Positions 16,800 through 41,465 of a stretch of DNA of 44,840 bases are shown here, in pieces. The translations under genes and the position numbers were made by a program. This DNA is from a virus: the UHGV virus genome UHGV-0716684; one strand, 5' to 3'. The notes beneath the pieces were generated by a model. The model was not told the origin of the DNA. It saw nothing but the letters and a program-made list of their open reading frames with translations, and did not search any database. Position 1 is the first letter of the stretch. Each line of letters starts with the position of its first letter.

Positions 16800-18212
16800 T
16801 CACTTATTCCATACCAATTTCTCTTGTCCGCTATCCCATATGCGGGATACACCTTCCGCAGCGTACCATTCCGACTGTGTAAGCCCCTCTGGCGCTTTGT
16901 TCCATTTTTGCCGTGATTCTGTTTTAGTCGCATTGTTTACGACGATGCGGAATCCACATCTCACAGAAGCCTTTTTAAACCCCGCTGATAGGTATGATTC
17001 TCCGGTAAATAAATCCCGGTCAGTGTAGGTAAAACCGTCGGTGATGCTATAACGGCGCACGGCATAGGCCCATAGCTTCGACAGCCCGCCTACCACCGAA
17101 CACGACGTAGCGTACCGCACAAGCTCCCATTCACCTTTTCTACACGTCAGCGTCATTACCGCAACAATCTTTTCTTCATAAACGAGGCTGATATACCTCG
17201 TCGAGTTACGGAATCCTTGAATGTGGTTCTCCTCCAGGAAACGCTCTGCACATATTTTGTTAATCTCTTTTACATGGCATTTGCGGGCGAAAACTCGCAA
17301 AGAAGAGACGCCGACGGAATGGCCGATTATTTTCTTTATTATTTCTTTTTTATGCAGCCATAGCTCATCCCTTATTGACAGGAGCCGGAACCCTCTTTCC
17401 TCAACGGCGACTCTTTTCTCCATGTGATACTTTCTCCCCTTCCCGGCAGCTTCACTGTGCCAGTACAGGCCGTTTATTTCTATCGCCAGATTATGTTGCG
17501 GTATTAAAATATCTATCTCTCTTGGGTGGATAAGACTTCTATCATTCCGATGATATTCCACCCCCATGCTATCGAGAAATTCACAGACTTCATCCTCCAC
17601 TTTACTACGCCCGAACGACGCGCACCGCGGGCACCCTCTACCCTGAAAAATGTTACCAAGCGTAGAGGCCCATTCATGGCCTTTTTGACACCTCAGTGTC
17701 GATGGCGCACGGCAGATATCCCCTGAATAAGACACCAGTTCAAAACCAGTGCCGCGTAACCTTTCCTCTATTTCTCCGATCTCGAGCCTTTTTCTGTTAG
17801 TGCTGCAATTCGGGCAATGACTTTTACCCCTTAAAATGTCGCTGCCGGTAGCGGACCAGACGAACCCGCATTTACATCTGAACGTTGATTTCCCACTTAC
17901 AGCACCTGCGTAATTAAGGCATTCAACCCCATTAGGCCACTCTGTTACTTTCGCCCGTTTTTCCGCAGCGTAGCATTGGGGGCAACCATGACCGTTTAGG
18001 ACGGTATTGGCCTTTGTCTCCCACACATGGCCACTACGGCAGCGGAATTTAGACTTAAGTTTAGAGTGGCCTGCATACTCAATTACTACTATACCCCGTG
18101 ACGCCAGTCTCAGGTTTACATCTTCTTCAGTTAAACGTCTGGACCCCATTAAAATACCCTCCGCTTCTTCTAGTATAAAGATTGTGTATATACATGTACC
18201 ACAGCAAGACAT
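16800..18212 (-). CDS. putative multi-domain homing-type endonuclease (zinc-ribbon repeats plus PD-(D/E)XK Vsr/DUF559-like nuclease motif)
   Basis: Repeated C..GH.W...G.GCP.C units; motif EIDILIPQHNLAIEINGLYWHSE; opposite strand inside the packaging/head module. Confidence 0.55.
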   Translation of the reverse strand: MSCCGTCIYTIFILEEAEGILMGSRRLTEEDVNLRLASRGIVVIEYAGHSKLKSKFRCRSGHVWETKANTVLNGHGCPQCYAAEKRAKVTEWPNGVECLNYAGAVSGKSTFRCKCGFVWSATGSDILRGKSHCPNCSTNRKRLEIGEIEERLRGTGFELVSYSGDICRAPSTLRCQKGHEWASTLGNIFQGRGCPRCASFGRSKVEDEVCEFLDSMGVEYHRNDRSLIHPREIDILIPQHNLAIEINGLYWHSEAAGKGRKYHMEKRVAVEERGFRLLSIRDELWLHKKEIIKKIIGHSVGVSSLRVFARKCHVKEINKICAERFLEENHIQGFRNSTRYISLVYEEKIVAVMTLTCRKGEWELVRYATSCSVVGGLSKLWAYAVRRYSITDGFTYTDRDLFTGESYLSAGFKKASVRCGFRIVVNNATKTESRQKWNKAPEGLTQSEWYAAEGVSRIWDSGQEKLVWNK

Positions 18213-27586: not shown

Positions 27587-28087
27587 CTATTTATAACCGT
27601 TGTTGAATGTTGTCAGTCCATGATTTATGTGAAACCTATTAGCCACAGACATGTAAATTCTTTCAGCGAAAGCGTCCTCTATTCTGTCAAATGTTTTACT
27701 AATCTGCTTACCGTTGACAACGGCATAAGCTCTCCACTTAGTTTTTCCTTTCCGCGCCACACCCGTAACTCCAGAGGTATTATCTTTGCGCCTTTTCACG
27801 TTAACCATGTTGTCCCTTCTAGATTTGCATGACAGGTTTTCAATTCTGTCGTCACAGGTATCATGGTTAGTATGGTCTATGACAAATCCTTTTGGAATCT
27901 TACCTGAGAACATCTCATACACCACCCTCGACCTTTTAAACTTACGGTTACCAAACATGACATACCAATAGCCGTTTTTACACAAACTCCCGGCCACATC
28001 ACCTATATTCACATCGTTACGGCGACATGATTTGACTTTCCAGTATAGGACGCCATTTTTGTAGCTAAAAACCTCACTCCAATCCAT
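27587..28087 (-). CDS. HNH homing endonuclease with AP2 DNA-binding domain
   Basis: HNH_3 motif VIDHTNHDTCDDRIENLSCKSRRDN; AP2-like SGVTGVARKGKTKWRAYAVVNGKQISKTFDRIEDA. Confidence 0.75.
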   Translation of the reverse strand: MDWSEVFSYKNGVLYWKVKSCRRNDVNIGDVAGSLCKNGYWYVMFGNRKFKRSRVVYEMFSGKIPKGFVIDHTNHDTCDDRIENLSCKSRRDNMVNVKRRKDNTSGVTGVARKGKTKWRAYAVVNGKQISKTFDRIEDAFAERIYMSVANRFHINHGLTTFNNGYK

Positions 28088-34517: not shown

Positions 34518-34879
34518 ATATTAACGACTACACGGGCATACCTTACGACTTTCGCAAACGCAATTGCTGGCATCACGTGCGCATTGTCCGCGCGGATGCC
34601 GGGTTAGAAACCCCTGCGTTCGACGTTACAAGCCCAACGGCAATTAACGAAGCGTTTGACGAAGGCCGCCGTGACACGAAGGGGCTTACAAAAATTGATA
34701 AGCCTGAAAACTTCTGCGCGGTGCTTATGGGTTATCGCCGCGGGGGTCGTATCGTGTGGCATGCGGGAGTTTACTTCGACGGGATGGTGAGTCATTGCGA
34801 GCTTGCATCCCGCCAGGTACGGCTTGACAGGCTGGCGGACCTCAGAGACACGTACACGGAGATTGAATTTTGGCGATAA
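34514..34879 (+). CDS. tail assembly protein with NlpC/P60-like Cys-His motif (gpK-like)
   Basis: 121 aa; NCWHHV and HAGVYFDGMVSHCE motifs. Confidence 0.45.
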   Translation: MNINDYTGIPYDFRKRNCWHHVRIVRADAGLETPAFDVTSPTAINEAFDEGRRDTKGLTKIDKPENFCAVLMGYRRGGRIVWHAGVYFDGMVSHCELASRQVRLDRLADLRDTYTEIEFWR

Positions 34880-37425
34880 TCCTGCACTACTCGCGAAACG
34901 CTGATGGCGCTTTCGACCGTACAAAACACGTCGGGATGCCGATGGAGTTTGTTGTTAGCCGTATTCCGGACGGTGTGCCTGTGCGCGTCTACCTCGGCGA
35001 GATTGGCGATGATACTGATGTTACAGACGACTTCGAAGCGCTTAAAGACGAAGACGCCGTGTACCATATTATTGAGGGTGCGGGTAGCGGGGCGCTTGGT
35101 GCAGTTAGTAAGGTATTTGGTTTTATCCTTAAGCCAATCGCTAAGTTGTTTGGCCTGAACATGTCCGCAAACGCCAACTATACGGCGACTAACAACCAGA
35201 CAACATCGCCAAATAACAGCCTCACGGACCGCTCAAACAAACCACGCCCTTACGAGCGCTCTTATGACATCTGCGGGACTGTGCAGACAATCCCTAACGA
35301 CCTTATGCAGACGTATAAAGCGTTCAACTCCACTGGTGCTTTGCTGGAGTATTCGTACTACGACGCCGGGCGCGGACATCTGTATATTGAGGCCGATGGC
35401 GTCACGGAAGGCGACACCCTGATAAGCGACATCACAGGTTCCTCTGTTGCCGTGTACGCGCCGTATACGTCACCGAACAACACCACATCGCCGCAGGTAC
35501 AAATCGGCGACGTCATTGATCAGAAGCTCTATGTGACGTACTCCAATGACGACGTTGACGGTATTGTGCTCAAAGCGCCAAACGACATTGGGGCTAACCC
35601 AAGCTCCGGTGGAACCGCCAAACGTACTTCGACCACCGGCTACATCTATGACCCGTCGGGCGACTCTGCTTTTTCTGAGTTTCTTAGCGTCGGTGATGTC
35701 GCGGTGCTGAGCAACTTTGACGTTGCTGATGTCACTAACCTGAACGGCTCGTTTGAGGTTTTATACGTTGATGACTTCGAAGTAAGATTAGCGGTAAACG
35801 GTGCGTCTAACTGGGCGGCGTTGACCAGCGGGCAGACGTACGCCCTAACAGAGCGTTCAGATACGTTTATCGGCCCGAGCGACACCTATGACGTATCCCT
35901 GACAGACTGGTATTACATGGTGCGCGGAGAAGTTGACCGGGTGCTTGCGAACGTTGCCGGGCAGAACGGCATCTACAAATACGACGGCGGCTATAACCGC
36001 ACCAGCGTAACGGTGGAACTCCAGTACCAGATGATTGACTCTCAGCGTAACCCGTTGAGCGATATTTACACGGTACAGGCTACGATTACTGGTAATAGCA
36101 CGGATTACGTTGGTACGTCTATCTACGGGCAGTTGCCGACCGCGTCTCGTTTCCGCGCCCGTATGCGCCGTATAACGAATTTTGATAAGGACTATGACGG
36201 AACGGTAAGCGACGAGATAACATTCATTAACCTGTATGGGCAGTCTCTGGACACCACTCCACACTACGGCAACCGAACTACCGTACATTGCGCCCGTAAA
36301 CAGACGCCGCGGGCCGCCAGTATCGATAACCCTGAACTGCGCATGATTGCGACCGAGATGTGCTACAAATACCTCGGCAATGGGGTATTCGATACAGTAA
36401 TGACACCGAACACGCAAGCCGTACAATCTCTAATTCGACTGGCGCGCGACCCCGCAGTAGGCAATCTGGAACTGACAACGGCAAACATGGACAAGTTACT
36501 TGCTGTGCAGGAAGAAATTGAGTCCTATTTCGGAAGTGAATTAGCAGGGCAATTCTGCTACACGTTCGACGACTATGACACAACCATGCAGGACATCGTC
36601 CAGACCATAGCGGAAGCCGTTTTCTGTACTGCGTACCGTAAAGGTGCGGATATTATGCTGCGATTCGACCGTCCTGTCGCGGGGCCTGAAATGGTGTTCA
36701 CCCACCGCAGCAAAACTACCGGTACTGAGAAATGGACCCGCACGTTCAACGATTCGACAACCTACGATAGCCTGTCGTTCTCATACATCGACCCGGATAC
36801 GAACGTACAGGAAACTATTTATATCCCGGAAGAACTAGGGGCAAACACCGAGGAATACGAATCGAAGGGCGTGCGCAACTATCAGCAAGCGTACTGGCTG
36901 GCGTGGCGTCGCTACCAGCGCAATGCGTTAAGTAAAGTTGTCGTAGAGTTTGAAGCTACCGAAGAAGGTGCGCTCGCTACCCCAGGCGGTGTAATCAGCG
37001 TAGTTAAAGGCTCGCGTATTGCGCCACAGGACGGCTATGTTGCTGCCGTTAATGGGCTTACGCTGACACTGTCACAGCCGGTTGCGTTTACTCCGGGTGA
37101 TGACCACTCCATCATCCTCAAGAAGCGCGATGGCTCTGTACAGAGTATCTCCGTTATCAAAGGAAGCCACGACCGCGAAGTGATTATGCTCTCCGCGCCG
37201 GAAGAAGCAATCTACACGGGGAATAGCGCACTAAAAACTGAGTTTTCATTCGGCAACGAAGCAAGGCATAATGCTCAGAAGATAGTTGTTTCTTCAATCG
37301 ACCCCGGCGACGACCGCACGGTCAAGATTACAGGCTACAACTATGACGACGGATTCTATAAATACGACGGCGTCGCGCCATACGGCAGCGGTTTCTCCGA
37401 CGGATTCAGCAATGGTTTTAATTAA
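34870..37425 (+). CDS. tail tip / host specificity protein (gpJ-like)
   Basis: 851 aa ORF after the M/L/K-like genes; start uncertain (TTG 34870 or ATG 34936). Confidence 0.6.
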   Translation: MAIILHYSRNADGAFDRTKHVGMPMEFVVSRIPDGVPVRVYLGEIGDDTDVTDDFEALKDEDAVYHIIEGAGSGALGAVSKVFGFILKPIAKLFGLNMSANANYTATNNQTTSPNNSLTDRSNKPRPYERSYDICGTVQTIPNDLMQTYKAFNSTGALLEYSYYDAGRGHLYIEADGVTEGDTLISDITGSSVAVYAPYTSPNNTTSPQVQIGDVIDQKLYVTYSNDDVDGIVLKAPNDIGANPSSGGTAKRTSTTGYIYDPSGDSAFSEFLSVGDVAVLSNFDVADVTNLNGSFEVLYVDDFEVRLAVNGASNWAALTSGQTYALTERSDTFIGPSDTYDVSLTDWYYMVRGEVDRVLANVAGQNGIYKYDGGYNRTSVTVELQYQMIDSQRNPLSDIYTVQATITGNSTDYVGTSIYGQLPTASRFRARMRRITNFDKDYDGTVSDEITFINLYGQSLDTTPHYGNRTTVHCARKQTPRAASIDNPELRMIATEMCYKYLGNGVFDTVMTPNTQAVQSLIRLARDPAVGNLELTTANMDKLLAVQEEIESYFGSELAGQFCYTFDDYDTTMQDIVQTIAEAVFCTAYRKGADIMLRFDRPVAGPEMVFTHRSKTTGTEKWTRTFNDSTTYDSLSFSYIDPDTNVQETIYIPEELGANTEEYESKGVRNYQQAYWLAWRRYQRNALSKVVVEFEATEEGALATPGGVISVVKGSRIAPQDGYVAAVNGLTLTLSQPVAFTPGDDHSIILKKRDGSVQSISVIKGSHDREVIMLSAPEEAIYTGNSALKTEFSFGNEARHNAQKIVVSSIDPGDDRTVKITGYNYDDGFYKYDGVAPYGSGFSDGFSNGFN

Positions 37426-37437
37426 AGAGGACTCTAT

Positions 37438-39390
37438 ATGTCAAGCGGATGCGGTGACGTTTTAAGCCTGGTGGATTTACAGACCGCCAAGAAACACCAA
37501 ATTTTTGAAGCCGAGGTTATCACCGGCAAATCCGGCGGTGTTGCTACTGGTGCTGATATTGATTATGCAACAAATCAGGTTACCGGACAGACACAGAAGA
37601 CGTTACCCGCCGTGTTGCGTGGCGCGGGATTTTCTCCCGTGTCGTGGGACTTTTCTACAGGCGGGACATTAACAGTTAATGACCGAGACAAAGTGGTGTA
37701 TGACCCTGTAAGCAAGACGTGGTACTCGTATACCGGGACTCTGCCGGTTGTTGTCCCCGCATCGTTTAACCCGGTTGGTAACGCTAACTGGAAGCCGCAG
37801 ACTGACCCGGATTTGCGCAATGAGCTAGCAGATCTATCCGGCGCATCTTTGGTGGGATTCAATTCTGGGTATTCCGATTCGGTTTCACTCACCGTAATGG
37901 ATAAACTCAAACAGGAGATTAACGTTGATGATTTTGGCGCATACGGTGACGCCTACCTGGTAAACGGAAGCCCAAACCCTAGTCGCCATGACGACACATC
38001 GGCGTTTCAGGCGGCTATAGTCGCCGCGTGGCGCGCGGGTGGTGTTAAAGTTGTTGCTACTCCGTGGAAAAGCTACTACATCGCCGGTAAAGTTTATGTG
38101 TTGGCTTCAGAATCTCCATCTGACATTGAAGCAACTAATTTCCCTAAGCGTAGGATGCAAGTGATCGATTTTCAGGGCGCTCGTATCGTAGGGCGTGACG
38201 ACACTTCTGACACAACTAACGTGTTCATTGAGACTGGCTATATAACTTCTACTGGCACTATCTCTTCGGTTTTTGGAAAATCTGGTGAAGAGTATCTAAC
38301 TATAGGGACAACAATTCGCAATGCTACACTGATTAATTTCTATCAAGGCTTTCGTCTGCGGGACCATGTATTTGGCTGCGAAGTTACAGATATTGTTGGT
38401 GTAAACGTCCAGCAGTTGATTTACACTCAGCGCTGTTTTTACTCCATGTTCAGGAACCTACAGTGTAACGGTACATACACTAACGGCTTGCACCGTTACC
38501 ACTTTACCGATGAATGTAACATTCAGCCATTAGTATCAGTTCATACAGGCCAGTGTGATGTCGGCATTAAGTTCGAAGGGGCTGTTGAAGCTCTTACGCT
38601 GTTCAACTGCGGCATTGAAAGTTTTCGTACCCATGGCGTTTGGATTGCAGGAGCATATAACATCAAGTTTGATTCATGCTACATAGAGTCAGACGAAAGT
38701 GGTGTATATGGCGTCATAGCAACGAGCGCCAATAATATCACTATGGATAACTGTTGGATTTACGGCAGTAGTATGAAAATGTTTGGCGCATTTGACGATA
38801 ATACTAACGTGCGTATTCTTCCTAATAACCGTATTGGGGGAGGGGCCGTTTGGTGGAACCTTAACGAAGGGTCGCCGTACAACCTTTCTGACATTCACTG
38901 GCAAACAGATATAAAACCCGGCGGTACAACACTACCCGCTGCATCCGCTAAAGAGGCCAGCACAGTAGACCAGACTATAGTCTTCTACCACCCGGATTTA
39001 GGACTTAGTTCAGTTGTAGGGAAAGCCAAGCAGACCAGTAAATACCACCCGCAGCTTGTTAACGGGAAGATGAGCAATGGTAGCTCCGCAGGGTACACAG
39101 TTGGCGCGAGCGTCTCTACAGAGATTTCTGGCTCAGACACCCGAGCAAAATGGACAACACAGATTCAATACTCAGATACCCAATTACTGTTCCTCGCCCT
39201 TAAAATAGACCATAACTTGGGGACATGGTTTTGGCTCGGGCATGTAGCCGGTGGGACCGCGGTGGCGCTTTCTACATCCGATGTATCGAAGCCGCCGGTG
39301 GTGAGCAACGAAAATGGCTTCGTTGTGGTAAAAAGTCCTTATTTGGCTACTCCTGTCGCCATACACGGCGGGGAAATACGCATACTCTAA
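37438..39390 (+). CDS. tailspike / tail fibre, candidate receptor-binding depolymerase with beta-helix-like body
   Basis: 650 aa; N-terminal anchor-like domain, then repeated Asn/Cys-containing rungs (NCGIESF, DSCYIESD, MDNCWIYG); last structural gene. Confidence 0.65.
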   Translation: MSSGCGDVLSLVDLQTAKKHQIFEAEVITGKSGGVATGADIDYATNQVTGQTQKTLPAVLRGAGFSPVSWDFSTGGTLTVNDRDKVVYDPVSKTWYSYTGTLPVVVPASFNPVGNANWKPQTDPDLRNELADLSGASLVGFNSGYSDSVSLTVMDKLKQEINVDDFGAYGDAYLVNGSPNPSRHDDTSAFQAAIVAAWRAGGVKVVATPWKSYYIAGKVYVLASESPSDIEATNFPKRRMQVIDFQGARIVGRDDTSDTTNVFIETGYITSTGTISSVFGKSGEEYLTIGTTIRNATLINFYQGFRLRDHVFGCEVTDIVGVNVQQLIYTQRCFYSMFRNLQCNGTYTNGLHRYHFTDECNIQPLVSVHTGQCDVGIKFEGAVEALTLFNCGIESFRTHGVWIAGAYNIKFDSCYIESDESGVYGVIATSANNITMDNCWIYGSSMKMFGAFDDNTNVRILPNNRIGGGAVWWNLNEGSPYNLSDIHWQTDIKPGGTTLPAASAKEASTVDQTIVFYHPDLGLSSVVGKAKQTSKYHPQLVNGKMSNGSSAGYTVGASVSTEISGSDTRAKWTTQIQYSDTQLLFLALKIDHNLGTWFWLGHVAGGTAVALSTSDVSKPPVVSNENGFVVVKSPYLATPVAIHGGEIRIL

Positions 39391-39395
39391 AAACT

Positions 39396-39419
39396 AAGGC
39401 CCCGAAAGGGGCCTTTTCT
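39396..39419. terminator. conserved bidirectional terminator hairpin aaggccccgaaaggggcctt
   Basis: Identical to hairpins at 19794 and 27155; between convergent genes. Confidence 0.65.
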
Positions 39420-39557
39420 CTACTCTTCTGATAACTTCTCCAGTACAAACGCCAGTTGCGCATTAGCGGCATCTCTCTGCTGGCGTAGACGTAGAACCTC
39501 TTCTTCGAGTTCCTTGATACGTTTTTGCAATGCCGGAATCGGGGCTATGATGTTCAT
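39420..39557 (-). CDS. small coiled-coil protein (45 aa)
   Basis: Hand-translated MNIIAPIPALQKRIKELEEEVLRLRQQ...; ATGA overlap with helicase stop. Confidence 0.35.
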   Translation of the reverse strand: MNIIAPIPALQKRIKELEEEVLRLRQQRDAANAQLAFVLEKLSEE

Positions 39558-40978
39558 TTCTTACCTCGTCTCTTCATGTAATTAAGCAATTCTTCCTGCA
39601 CCGATTTCTTCTCGTCTGTACGCGCGGCAACAACCTCGTCCAGCGTGTCTTTAGCAACGATGTGATAGAGGAACACCGGCCGCTCGCGCCCTGCCTGTTT
39701 CTGGCGGACCGGGCCTATACGCTCGACAACCTGCAAATAGTGCTCAAGGTTCCAGCCTTGCGAGATGAATGCCAGATGATGCCCGCCGTCCTGTAAATTC
39801 AAACCATGCCCGGCTGACGCAGGATGCACGCATAAGATTTCGATTTCCCCTCGGTTCCATGCTTCCATCTGCTTATTGCCCTTAGCGCCTTTGGCAAACG
39901 CCTGGGCCTGCGGGAATCGCTTAAGGATGCGCTCCAGTTCGTGCTTAAACTGATAGGCCACCAATAACGGAGCGCCCTGTAACTCCTCAACAATCGACTC
40001 AAGCGCATCCAGTTTCGTGTCGTGAACTTTCTCCCAGTCTTTGGTTGCTTCTCCGTCTGGCCCCGATACATACACGGCACCGGATGCAATCTGTAGGCAC
40101 TTCGACGTCTTCGCCGCAGCGTTAGCCGCTTCCACTTCCCCGCTCTCCAGTTCTGCGAATAGCTTCTCCTCCATATCGATGTACGCCTGACGCGCCTTCT
40201 TCGGTAGGTCGATTTCAACCGGTACAATAATCGGCGCTTCACAACCAAACCACTCGGCCGCGTCAATCGTGAGACTAATGTCTTTCATCTTCTGATGAAT
40301 CTCATTATCTGCGCCAGGGCGGGCGTGGTATTCACGTGCCATCGCCGATTTGCCCTTCTGTACCGAGTTAAACCAGCGGTCTGTGAATGCTGTGTATGAA
40401 GAACCGAGGCGCTCTCCAGCGTCGATAAACCAGTTCTGACCCCACAAGTCCTTAAGGCCGTTCGGTGACGGTGTACCGGTAAGGTTAATGAAACGCTTAA
40501 CCTTACCGAACGCCACTTTGCTTAACGCCTTTGCTCTCTTACTACCGCCAGAACGACTACGGAATGATTTCAACTTCGTGCTTTCATCGGCGACGATAAC
40601 CGTAAAAGGCCAGTCGTCTTTGCCGTAGTAGTCGATAAGCCACTCGATAACTTCGTAGTTGGTGCACACCACGTTAGCGTCTGACTCCAGCGCCGCGATG
40701 CGGCGCTTCTCTGAACCGGTCGCATCGACGACACGCAGACAAGGGAAGTTCCATTTCTCTTGTTCTGCAGGCCATGTACCTGACGCAACACGCAACGGCG
40801 CGAGGATTAACACGCGGTCATCATCATTAAGTTGGCCGTTGCGGAACAGTCTGTTTAACGCCCACAGTACGCTGCCAGTCTTACCCGCACCCATGCTCGC
40901 CCATATGTTACAGCGATGGTGCCGCAGCATGAACGAGGTCATAAGCTTCTGGTACTCGCGCCTTTGAAACTTACTCAT
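39554..40978 (-). CDS. superfamily II DNA helicase (SNF2/RAD54-like)
   Basis: 474 aa; Walker A GAGKTG, DEST box (VADESTKLK), motif III LTGTP. Confidence 0.8.
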   Translation of the reverse strand: MSKFQRREYQKLMTSFMLRHHRCNIWASMGAGKTGSVLWALNRLFRNGQLNDDDRVLILAPLRVASGTWPAEQEKWNFPCLRVVDATGSEKRRIAALESDANVVCTNYEVIEWLIDYYGKDDWPFTVIVADESTKLKSFRSRSGGSKRAKALSKVAFGKVKRFINLTGTPSPNGLKDLWGQNWFIDAGERLGSSYTAFTDRWFNSVQKGKSAMAREYHARPGADNEIHQKMKDISLTIDAAEWFGCEAPIIVPVEIDLPKKARQAYIDMEEKLFAELESGEVEAANAAAKTSKCLQIASGAVYVSGPDGEATKDWEKVHDTKLDALESIVEELQGAPLLVAYQFKHELERILKRFPQAQAFAKGAKGNKQMEAWNRGEIEILCVHPASAGHGLNLQDGGHHLAFISQGWNLEHYLQVVERIGPVRQKQAGRERPVFLYHIVAKDTLDEVVAARTDEKKSVQEELLNYMKRRGKK

Positions 40979-41465
40979 TGGGTCGTATTCCTTTGTCTAA
41001 TGTTTCAAGTGCCGATACCCTGGCGGCTATTGCTTCTTCTCTTGTAGAGTAATAGCCTAAATGCTTCTTTATTCCGTCAATAGTCATATACGCGGCCCAT
41101 TTATTATGCGACTCTCGCCACCTAACGCCAGGAAAGCCGCTTTTATTACTCGACCTAATTTTCTGCCATCCAGCTTTTGCGACGTTACCTTGTTGTGTCA
41201 CTAACTGTAGATTTTCCAATCGGTTATCATCGTACACGCCATTTATGTGGTCAATTTGCATTCCTTCTGGAATCTTGCCGTTGTGCATCTCCCAGACTAT
41301 TCTATGCGCTTGGTATATTTTACCTTTGAACTTAATACGCCTATGACCCTTGTTTACCGAGCTTCCTGCTGTACTGCCTACCGATACTCTCGGCCCCGGT
41401 CTTACTCGCCAAATGAGGGTGCCGTTGTCGTAGGTGAATATCCTTCCCCATGCTATTTCACACAT
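40971..41465 (-). CDS. HNH homing endonuclease with AP2 DNA-binding domain (paralog of 27587-28087)
   Basis: HNH_3 motif QIDHINGVYDDNRLENLQLVTQQGN; AP2-like SGFPGVRWRESHNKWAAYMTIDGIKKHLGYY. Confidence 0.75.
   Translation of the reverse strand: MCEIAWGRIFTYDNGTLIWRVRPGPRVSVGSTAGSSVNKGHRRIKFKGKIYQAHRIVWEMHNGKIPEGMQIDHINGVYDDNRLENLQLVTQQGNVAKAGWQKIRSSNKSGFPGVRWRESHNKWAAYMTIDGIKKHLGYYSTREEAIAARVSALETLDKGIRPNE

Follow-up and report, generated by a model that had tools for sequence, protein, structure and literature searches.

We analysed the gene at positions 37438 to 39390 on the plus strand of the UHGV virus genome UHGV-0716684, a stretch of 44,840 nucleotides (nt) referred to below as the window, and found that its product is probably the sole tailspike of this Kagunavirus-like siphophage. 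The first-pass annotation of this DNA, made from the letters alone, had placed here an open reading frame (ORF) of 650 amino acids (aa) and called it the last structural gene. Both statements hold, as the same coordinates and length were recovered from the ORF list, and the gene closes the plus-strand tail module, in which it follows the genes for the tape measure, a distal tail protein, a DUF1833 minor tail protein, an NlpC/P60-like minor tail protein and an 851-aa J-like tail protein, in this order. To its 3' side lie converging minus-strand replication genes for a helicase, an HNH endonuclease and a DNA polymerase. The features of the locus are as follows.

37438..39390, plus strand: tailspike coding sequence, ATG start, 650 aa and stop codon, from the ORF list
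37438..37824, plus strand: N-terminal virion anchor, aa 1–129, conserved within Kagunavirus and Guernseyvirinae
37825..37905, plus strand: linker, aa 130–156, ADLSGASLVGFNSGYSDSVSLTVMDKL, from blastn breakpoints and alignment
37906..38889, plus strand: right-handed parallel β-helix, aa 157–484, opening with the cap motif INVDDFGAYGDA...HDDTSAFQAAI; presumed to bind the glycan and to act as the catalytic domain
38617..38688, plus strand: codons of E394 (38617–38619), Y415 and E417 (38686–38688), invariant; candidate catalytic residues
38890..39387, plus strand: C-terminal β-sandwich, aa 485–650, from the structural model; presumed to serve trimer stabilisation and/or extra glycan contacts
37425..37431, plus strand: Shine-Dalgarno sequence AAGAGGA, 6 nt 5' of the ATG and overlapping the stop codon of the J-like gene, read from the sequence
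39396..39415, no strand assigned: GC-rich hairpin with T-runs on both strands, a bidirectional terminator, from terminator scan, sequence and blastn

The earlier proposal that the product is a tailspike is supported by the matches of its N-terminus to tailspike families, by its locus directly after the J-like gene and by a C-terminal part that is shared with the tailspikes of other lineages. The anchor matches the tail spike family phrog_29731 over aa 1–114 with an E value of 1.8e-49, as well as phrog_20900 and phrog_27367; PF18668 (Tail_spike_N) and PDB entry 9lna are matched only weakly. Tailspikes of Kagunavirus, a genus of glycan-dependent phages, are encoded at this very position directly after the J-like gene (PMC11990801). 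The protein thus combines an N-terminal attachment domain common to related phages with a gene position at the tail tip, as expected for a tailspike.

The borders of the exchangeable part are sharply defined. In comparison with Kagunavirus fFiEco02, which has a different spike body, nucleotide homology amounts to 92.8% up to position 37823, is absent inside, and resumes with 92.6% from 39391, the first base past the tailspike stop codon. As Kagunavirus DNA homology breaks at both ends, positions 37824–39390 represent a swapped cassette, with one breakpoint at codon 129/130 and the other right at the stop codon. A P22-like prophage of Escherichia coli EC6 is homologous at 88% nt identity over 37909–39378 (blastn). 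The linker of aa 130–156 falls within the exchanged cassette and at the DNA level matches neither fFiEco02 nor the P22-like prophage. Note that the breakpoints were mapped empirically; motifs 1–3 of Pas et al. 2023 appear as figures only. The arrangement of a genus-conserved anchor and flanks around an exchangeable receptor-binding domain (RBD, here aa 157–650), by which tailspikes of Kagunavirus (Guernseyvirinae) are recognised, was thus found in the window, and the β-sandwich accompanies the β-helix in all homologues.

The backbone of the window is related to Kagunavirus phages (K1ind1-3, UTEC10, VIPECOTH07, Bas74) with approximately 90–94% nt identity over 65–70% of the 24.8 kb queried. At least 12 contigs of separate sample origin encode an identical tailspike protein; eight of them measure 37–45.5 kb, and seven of these, at 44–45.5 kb, are near whole-genome size. 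No isolated phage in INPHARED carries the whole gene: 103 records match it only from nt 1 to between 371 and 392, and the remainder was matched in tblastn by a single isolate, the podophage vB_EcoP_P64441, with 70% identity.

Around the gene, the J-like tail protein (34870–37425, plus strand) has 851 aa from a TTG start with a 10-nt overlap with the preceding gene, and 827 aa on most sister contigs, where a later start is called. The hairpin at 39396–39415, AAGGCCCCGAAAGGGGCCTT, starts 5 nt past the tailspike stop codon and is a bidirectional terminator that separates the tail module from the converging replication genes. Directly beyond it, a 45-aa coiled-coil-like ORF, MNIIAPIPALQKRIKELEEEVLRLRQQRDAANAQLAFVLEKLSEE, is located on the minus strand at 39420–39557 and is called in 10 of 10 related contigs; most other contigs have an extra gene of 61–171 aa between this ORF and the helicase that is missing from the window and from contig L015. 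Three HNH or homing-endonuclease genes are found on the minus strand, two of them (16800–18212, 470 aa, and 27587–28087, 166 aa) inside the plus-strand structural region and one (40971–41465, 164 aa) among the replication genes. The last is shared by the window and L015, but other contigs with the identical tailspike lack it at this position, a pattern suggestive of mobile insertions.

Fold prediction and conserved residues

The middle of the protein shows a clear rung pattern. Eight of the nine cysteines fall in residues 314–439, each in the context xxxC(x)(I/V/F), and near-identical motifs occupy three consecutive rungs, LFNCGIES (388–395), FDSCYIES (411–418) and MDNCWIYG (436–443). Residues 151–480 contain 7.0% Asn, 9.7% Gly and 2.4% Cys, the corresponding values for residues 481–650 being 3.5% Asn and no Cys, and a BLOSUM autocorrelation over residues 285–470 peaks at a lag of 25 (z = 3.1, 300 shuffles). 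A structural model was calculated with AlphaFold2 from an alignment of 42 near and distant homologues and has a mean predicted local distance difference test (pLDDT) score of 79.9. Residues 160–480, mostly above 90, consist almost entirely of short β-strands and form a right-handed parallel β-helix body, the defining feature of tailspikes and depolymerases, so that the fold proposed in the first-pass annotation was recovered by the structure prediction that it had suggested as a check. The annotation had, however, extended the rungs through the middle and the C-terminal part; this stands for the middle, about 157–484, and fails for the last 166 residues, which form a separate β-sandwich that lacks the Cys/Asn pattern. 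In the model this domain is all-β, with pLDDT values mostly between 80 and 90 that fall to 59–77 at aa 530–560. As all solved tailspikes are trimers of this kind, the spike presumably is a homotrimer. At the sequence level, a profile search of the PDB detects the cap motif DFGAxGDG...TDDTxAhQ that is common to glycoside hydrolase (GH) family GH55 glucanases, AlgE epimerases and pectin-lyase-like proteins.

Among the 42 homologues, which reach down to 21% identity, no more than six positions are invariant, N361, E394, Y415 and E417 being four of them. E394 and E417 take equivalent positions on two successive rungs (CGIES and CYIES) and are also invariant in the alignment of closer relatives; further acidic residues, D244, E284 and E384, do not vary in the 18 closer relatives. 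The fold and the conserved acidic residues E394 and E417 together suggest a depolymerase activity, with these two glutamates as the candidate catalytic carboxylates. The RBD family is small, with 143 representatives at 50% clustering and E ≤ 1e-3 and only 12 at E ≤ 1e-30.

We consider it likely that the protein is a modular tailspike whose exchanged β-helix module cuts a surface glycan. In such a mechanism the anchor of aa 1–129 would dock the spike to the tail tip beside the J-like protein, the groove of the β-helix (aa 157–484) would, as in solved tailspike glycosidases, bind several repeats of the surface polysaccharide and then cleave it, and the β-sandwich of aa 485–650 would complete the receptor-binding module. 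By cutting the glycan the virion would gain a path to the outer membrane, and through this access the module would set the host range.

Distribution of the module and its predicted target

The RBD recurs with 88–95% identity on four other anchor types and with 71% on a fifth. Identities to aa 157–650 are as follows.

94.5% (P0017) and 91.7% (P0019): spikes with a PF18668-type anchor, P0019 on a 58-kb siphovirus-like contig
89.9%: spike P0094 of a T7-like podovirus
89.7–92.1%: 638-aa spikes with the P22 head-binding domain, from E. coli and Salmonella
71%: second spike of P64441, with an SP6-like anchor

Judged from these comparisons, the cassette 37824–39390 is one that is horizontally exchanged among five phage lineages. 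On the 58-kb siphovirus-like metagenomic contig (L024, 8001–9974) the module with its PF18668-type anchor is flanked by lysis and single-stranded DNA-binding protein genes, and on the T7-like podovirus contig (L025, 8001–10217) it is located at the gp17 position, behind a PF03906 anchor.

The module is commonest in Salmonella enterica, on late regions of the P22-like type that appear intact, where the three tailspike entries P0059, P0060 and P0061 account for 446 contigs. P0060 is named from serovar Rubislaw strain A4-653, and this serovar belongs to serogroup O:11 (PMC5015238). Among 5,426 complete E. coli genomes, three carry the module, EC6, HKUOPY1 and 2017.06.05CC. HKUOPY1 has a decayed P22-like prophage with gtr genes at argW in a host with O75 wzx/wzy genes. 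Two of the three, NZ_AP027790.1 and NZ_CP019961.1 (HKUOPY1), hold decayed prophages of the P22-like type in which the module is truncated. Beside the AP027790 remnant lie a Hachiman defence system, IS1 and a gene with an FRG domain, and in the HKUOPY1 remnant O-antigen glucosylation genes of the gtrA/gtrB type are preserved adjacent to intS/argW.

With the O75 Wzy polymerase as query, only six proteins were retrieved. The closest one with a named source outside E. coli is the EpsG/Wzy protein of Rubislaw at 70% identity, which belongs to a cluster of 517 members; another match, with no source name, shows 68% identity. The O75 cluster (L007, 7300–12900) is colinear with two Rubislaw contigs (L026 and L027) in the order wzy-GT4-GT2-manC, with aa identities of 70% for wzy, 56% for GT4, 65% for GT2 and 84% for manC, and a nt identity of 70% over 3.9 kb. 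By gene order and identity the O-antigen clusters of E. coli O75 and Salmonella O:11 are orthologous, a pairing of which no mention was found in the literature searched. The O75 cluster provides for the synthesis of dTDP-L-rhamnose and GDP-mannose and contains no uronic-acid pathway. The O75 repeat consists of Man, Gal, Rha and GlcNAc, a composition that was not used as evidence here.

The occurrence of the module in Rubislaw prophages and in the O75 remnant, together with the colinearity of the two clusters, leads to the prediction of an O75/O:11-type target. As the EC6 host and the O91 host described below do not fit, we assign the related E. coli O75 and Salmonella O:11-type O-antigens as the target only tentatively. 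That the target is an O-antigen rather than a capsule is favoured by the homologues and seems fairly likely. With a neutral-sugar glycan and no uronic-acid pathway, the enzyme would be an endoglycosidase, that is a hydrolase, rather than a lyase.

Alternative readings

Several observations weigh against the interpretation of the gene as a tailspike that cuts an O75/O:11-type O-antigen. The structural model is that of a monomer, and its anchor is poorly predicted, with pLDDT values below 50 at aa 1–52. The Pfam Beta_helix family is matched barely at its cut-off (26.0 versus 25.9 bits), and neither the single protein nor the 42-sequence profile found any solved structure in the PDB that matches the RBD in sequence past the N-terminal cap motif, so that no CAZy-type family or mechanism is assignable and catalytic residues are not transferable. 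The RBD was found on no isolated Kagunavirus in INPHARED. As for the E. coli hosts, the copy of the module in the O75 strain is a decayed pseudogene, 2017.06.05CC carries a decayed remnant in a host with O91 wzx/wzy genes, and EC6, which among the complete E. coli genomes is alone in carrying the module on a prophage late region that appears intact (at argW), has a wzm locus of the O60 type. With different O loci and two decayed copies, no simple serogroup consensus emerges from the complete E. coli genomes. In the O locus of EC6 (NZ_CP182398.1, 1800000–1849999), where the wzm/wzt set is of the O60 family, a glycosyltransferase gene is interrupted by IS1; the strain's colanic-acid manC is split by IS5. 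EC6 may lack a normal O-antigen, and the specificity of its prophage is therefore harder to read.

The three different O loci of the E. coli carriers (O60-type, O75 and O91) would suit a module that targets not the O-antigen but a capsule or a serogroup-independent exopolysaccharide, such as a K antigen, colanic acid or a similar polymer. The close Kagunavirus relatives of the backbone, K1ind1-3, bear K1 endosialidase spikes, P64441 pairs its 71% identical module with an endosialidase, and there is a weak match (E 3e-5) to phrog_8280, a tailspike family annotated with colanic acid degradation. This match, however, is marginal and lies partly over the generic cap region, and, as decayed remnants, two of the three copies in E. 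coli are poor guides to the current O type. P22-like prophages of Salmonella enterica, among them those of Rubislaw, are moreover the commonest carriers of the module. Characterised P22-like spikes mostly cut O-antigen, with CUS-3 as the capsule exception. The orthology of the O75 and Rubislaw O loci, finally, is a convergence that was not forced, and in sum we regard a capsular or exopolysaccharide target as unlikely.

With respect to the type of reaction, the invariant Y415 close to E417 raises the question whether the module is an enzyme of the lyase or epimerase type, acting by β-elimination on uronic acids as do K5 lyase, pectate lyases and AlgE4. AlgE4-type enzymes use Tyr, His and Asp. 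HK620, CBA120 TSP3, polygalacturonases and GH87/GH110 enzymes reach equally good fold scores, and lyases cannot be told from hydrolases by the fold alone. At the sequence level Pfam and PDB searches yielded no match to a lyase family, and the predicted O75/O:11-type substrate derives from a cluster that lacks the uronic-acid pathway, so that a lyase appears quite improbable in comparison with the hydrolase preferred here. An even smaller probability is given to a spike that merely binds its glycan and has no catalytic function. No catalytic motif known from curated glycosidase families turned up in the Pfam and PDB profile searches, but the stacked E394 and E417 remain invariant down to 21% identity, D244, E284 and E384 are conserved, and the structural neighbours nearest to the model are almost all enzymes. 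Kagunavirus spikes of the BASEL collection are likewise described as enzymatic (PMC11990801).

Significance and comparison with known tailspikes

Host range in Kagunavirus-type phages is determined mainly by tailspike modules, which can be moved between phages, and one with a defined serogroup specificity would be usable for phage engineering, as a serotyping reagent or as an anti-virulence enzyme. O75 is a common serogroup of extraintestinal pathogenic E. coli, and O:11 includes the environmental Salmonella serovar Rubislaw. No O75-specific tailspike was found in our literature search. It is conceivable, if rather doubtful, that the present module is the first for the shared O75/O:11 O-antigen, and that it stands for an unclassified family of β-helix endoglycosidases with stacked Glu394 and Glu417, spread over at least five unrelated lineages and permitting host jumps between E. 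coli and Salmonella. In any case the locus provides one more well-delimited example of cassette exchange, with a predicted specificity that is testable. The general understanding of tailspikes is unchanged, and the finding will not surprise specialists.

A number of known systems were considered and rejected as the sequence family of the spike. The PF09008 head-binding domain has no match in the tailspike and is seen only in the prophage homologues, and no chain of the P22, Sf6 or HK620 spikes was retrieved by phmmer or by profile search of the PDB at E ≤ 1, leaving a similarity at the level of the fold; membership in the P22/Sf6/HK620 sequence family was rejected on these grounds. An endosialidase was rejected for its wrong fold, and no GH58 β-propeller or Peptidase_S74 match was obtained from Pfam or the PDB; the K1ind spikes match the tailspike in the anchor only. 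K5 lyase had been considered since P64441 resembles the dual-spike phage K1-5, and was rejected in the absence of a sequence match to 2x3h, with which only the fold is similar.

More distant likenesses are found among solved structures. The β-helix tailspikes CBA120 TSP3 (6nw9), HK620 (2vji/4xn3), phiAB6 and Klebsiella Depo32 (7vz3) share just 9–15% sequence identity with the protein. The A-module of the mannuronan C5-epimerase AlgE4 (2pyg) and pectin-lyase-like and GH55 enzymes reach 18%, but these are soluble bacterial, plant or fungal enzymes and not virion proteins, and their substrates are uronic-acid polymers or glucans. Much closer are the 638-aa P22-like (PF09008) prophage tailspikes that occur in Salmonella enterica as well as in E. 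coli, with 92.7–94.2% identity for the β-helix alone. They differ in being mounted on the P22 head-binding anchor of temperate podoviruses, whereas the phage in the window is a siphovirus with a Kagunavirus anchor and no evident lysogeny genes. The only isolate in the collection with this RBD type is P64441 (vB_EcoP_P64441, Slopekvirinae), a podovirus whose "tail fiber protein" XXQ42883.1 of 520 aa has a 26-aa N-terminus typical of a second, adaptor-mounted spike and occurs beside an endosialidase spike.

The closest parallel in construction is provided by the O-antigen tailspikes of Kagunavirus (PMC10408124), including the O16 spikes of Bas70-76 in the BASEL collection (PMC11990801). They have the same anchor, with up to 97% nt identity over the first 370–390 nt or so, lie at the same locus after the J-like gene, combine this anchor with an exchangeable RBD, and share RBDs with Lederbergvirus (P22-like) prophages and podoviruses. 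The abstract of Pas et al. 2023 (PMC10408124) does not list O75 among the serogroups to which receptor-binding protein subtypes were assigned. The presence of the module on several anchors matches the swapping of anchors and RBDs among Kaguna-, Lederberg-, Kayfuna- and other genera that was described in the same work (PMC10408124). In kind, the protein is an ordinary phage tailspike with an RBD family that is itself uncharacterised, and its fold, its anchor, its locus and its cassette borders are those of the O-antigen tailspikes of Kagunavirus, Lederbergvirus and Kuttervirus, whose construction it shares.

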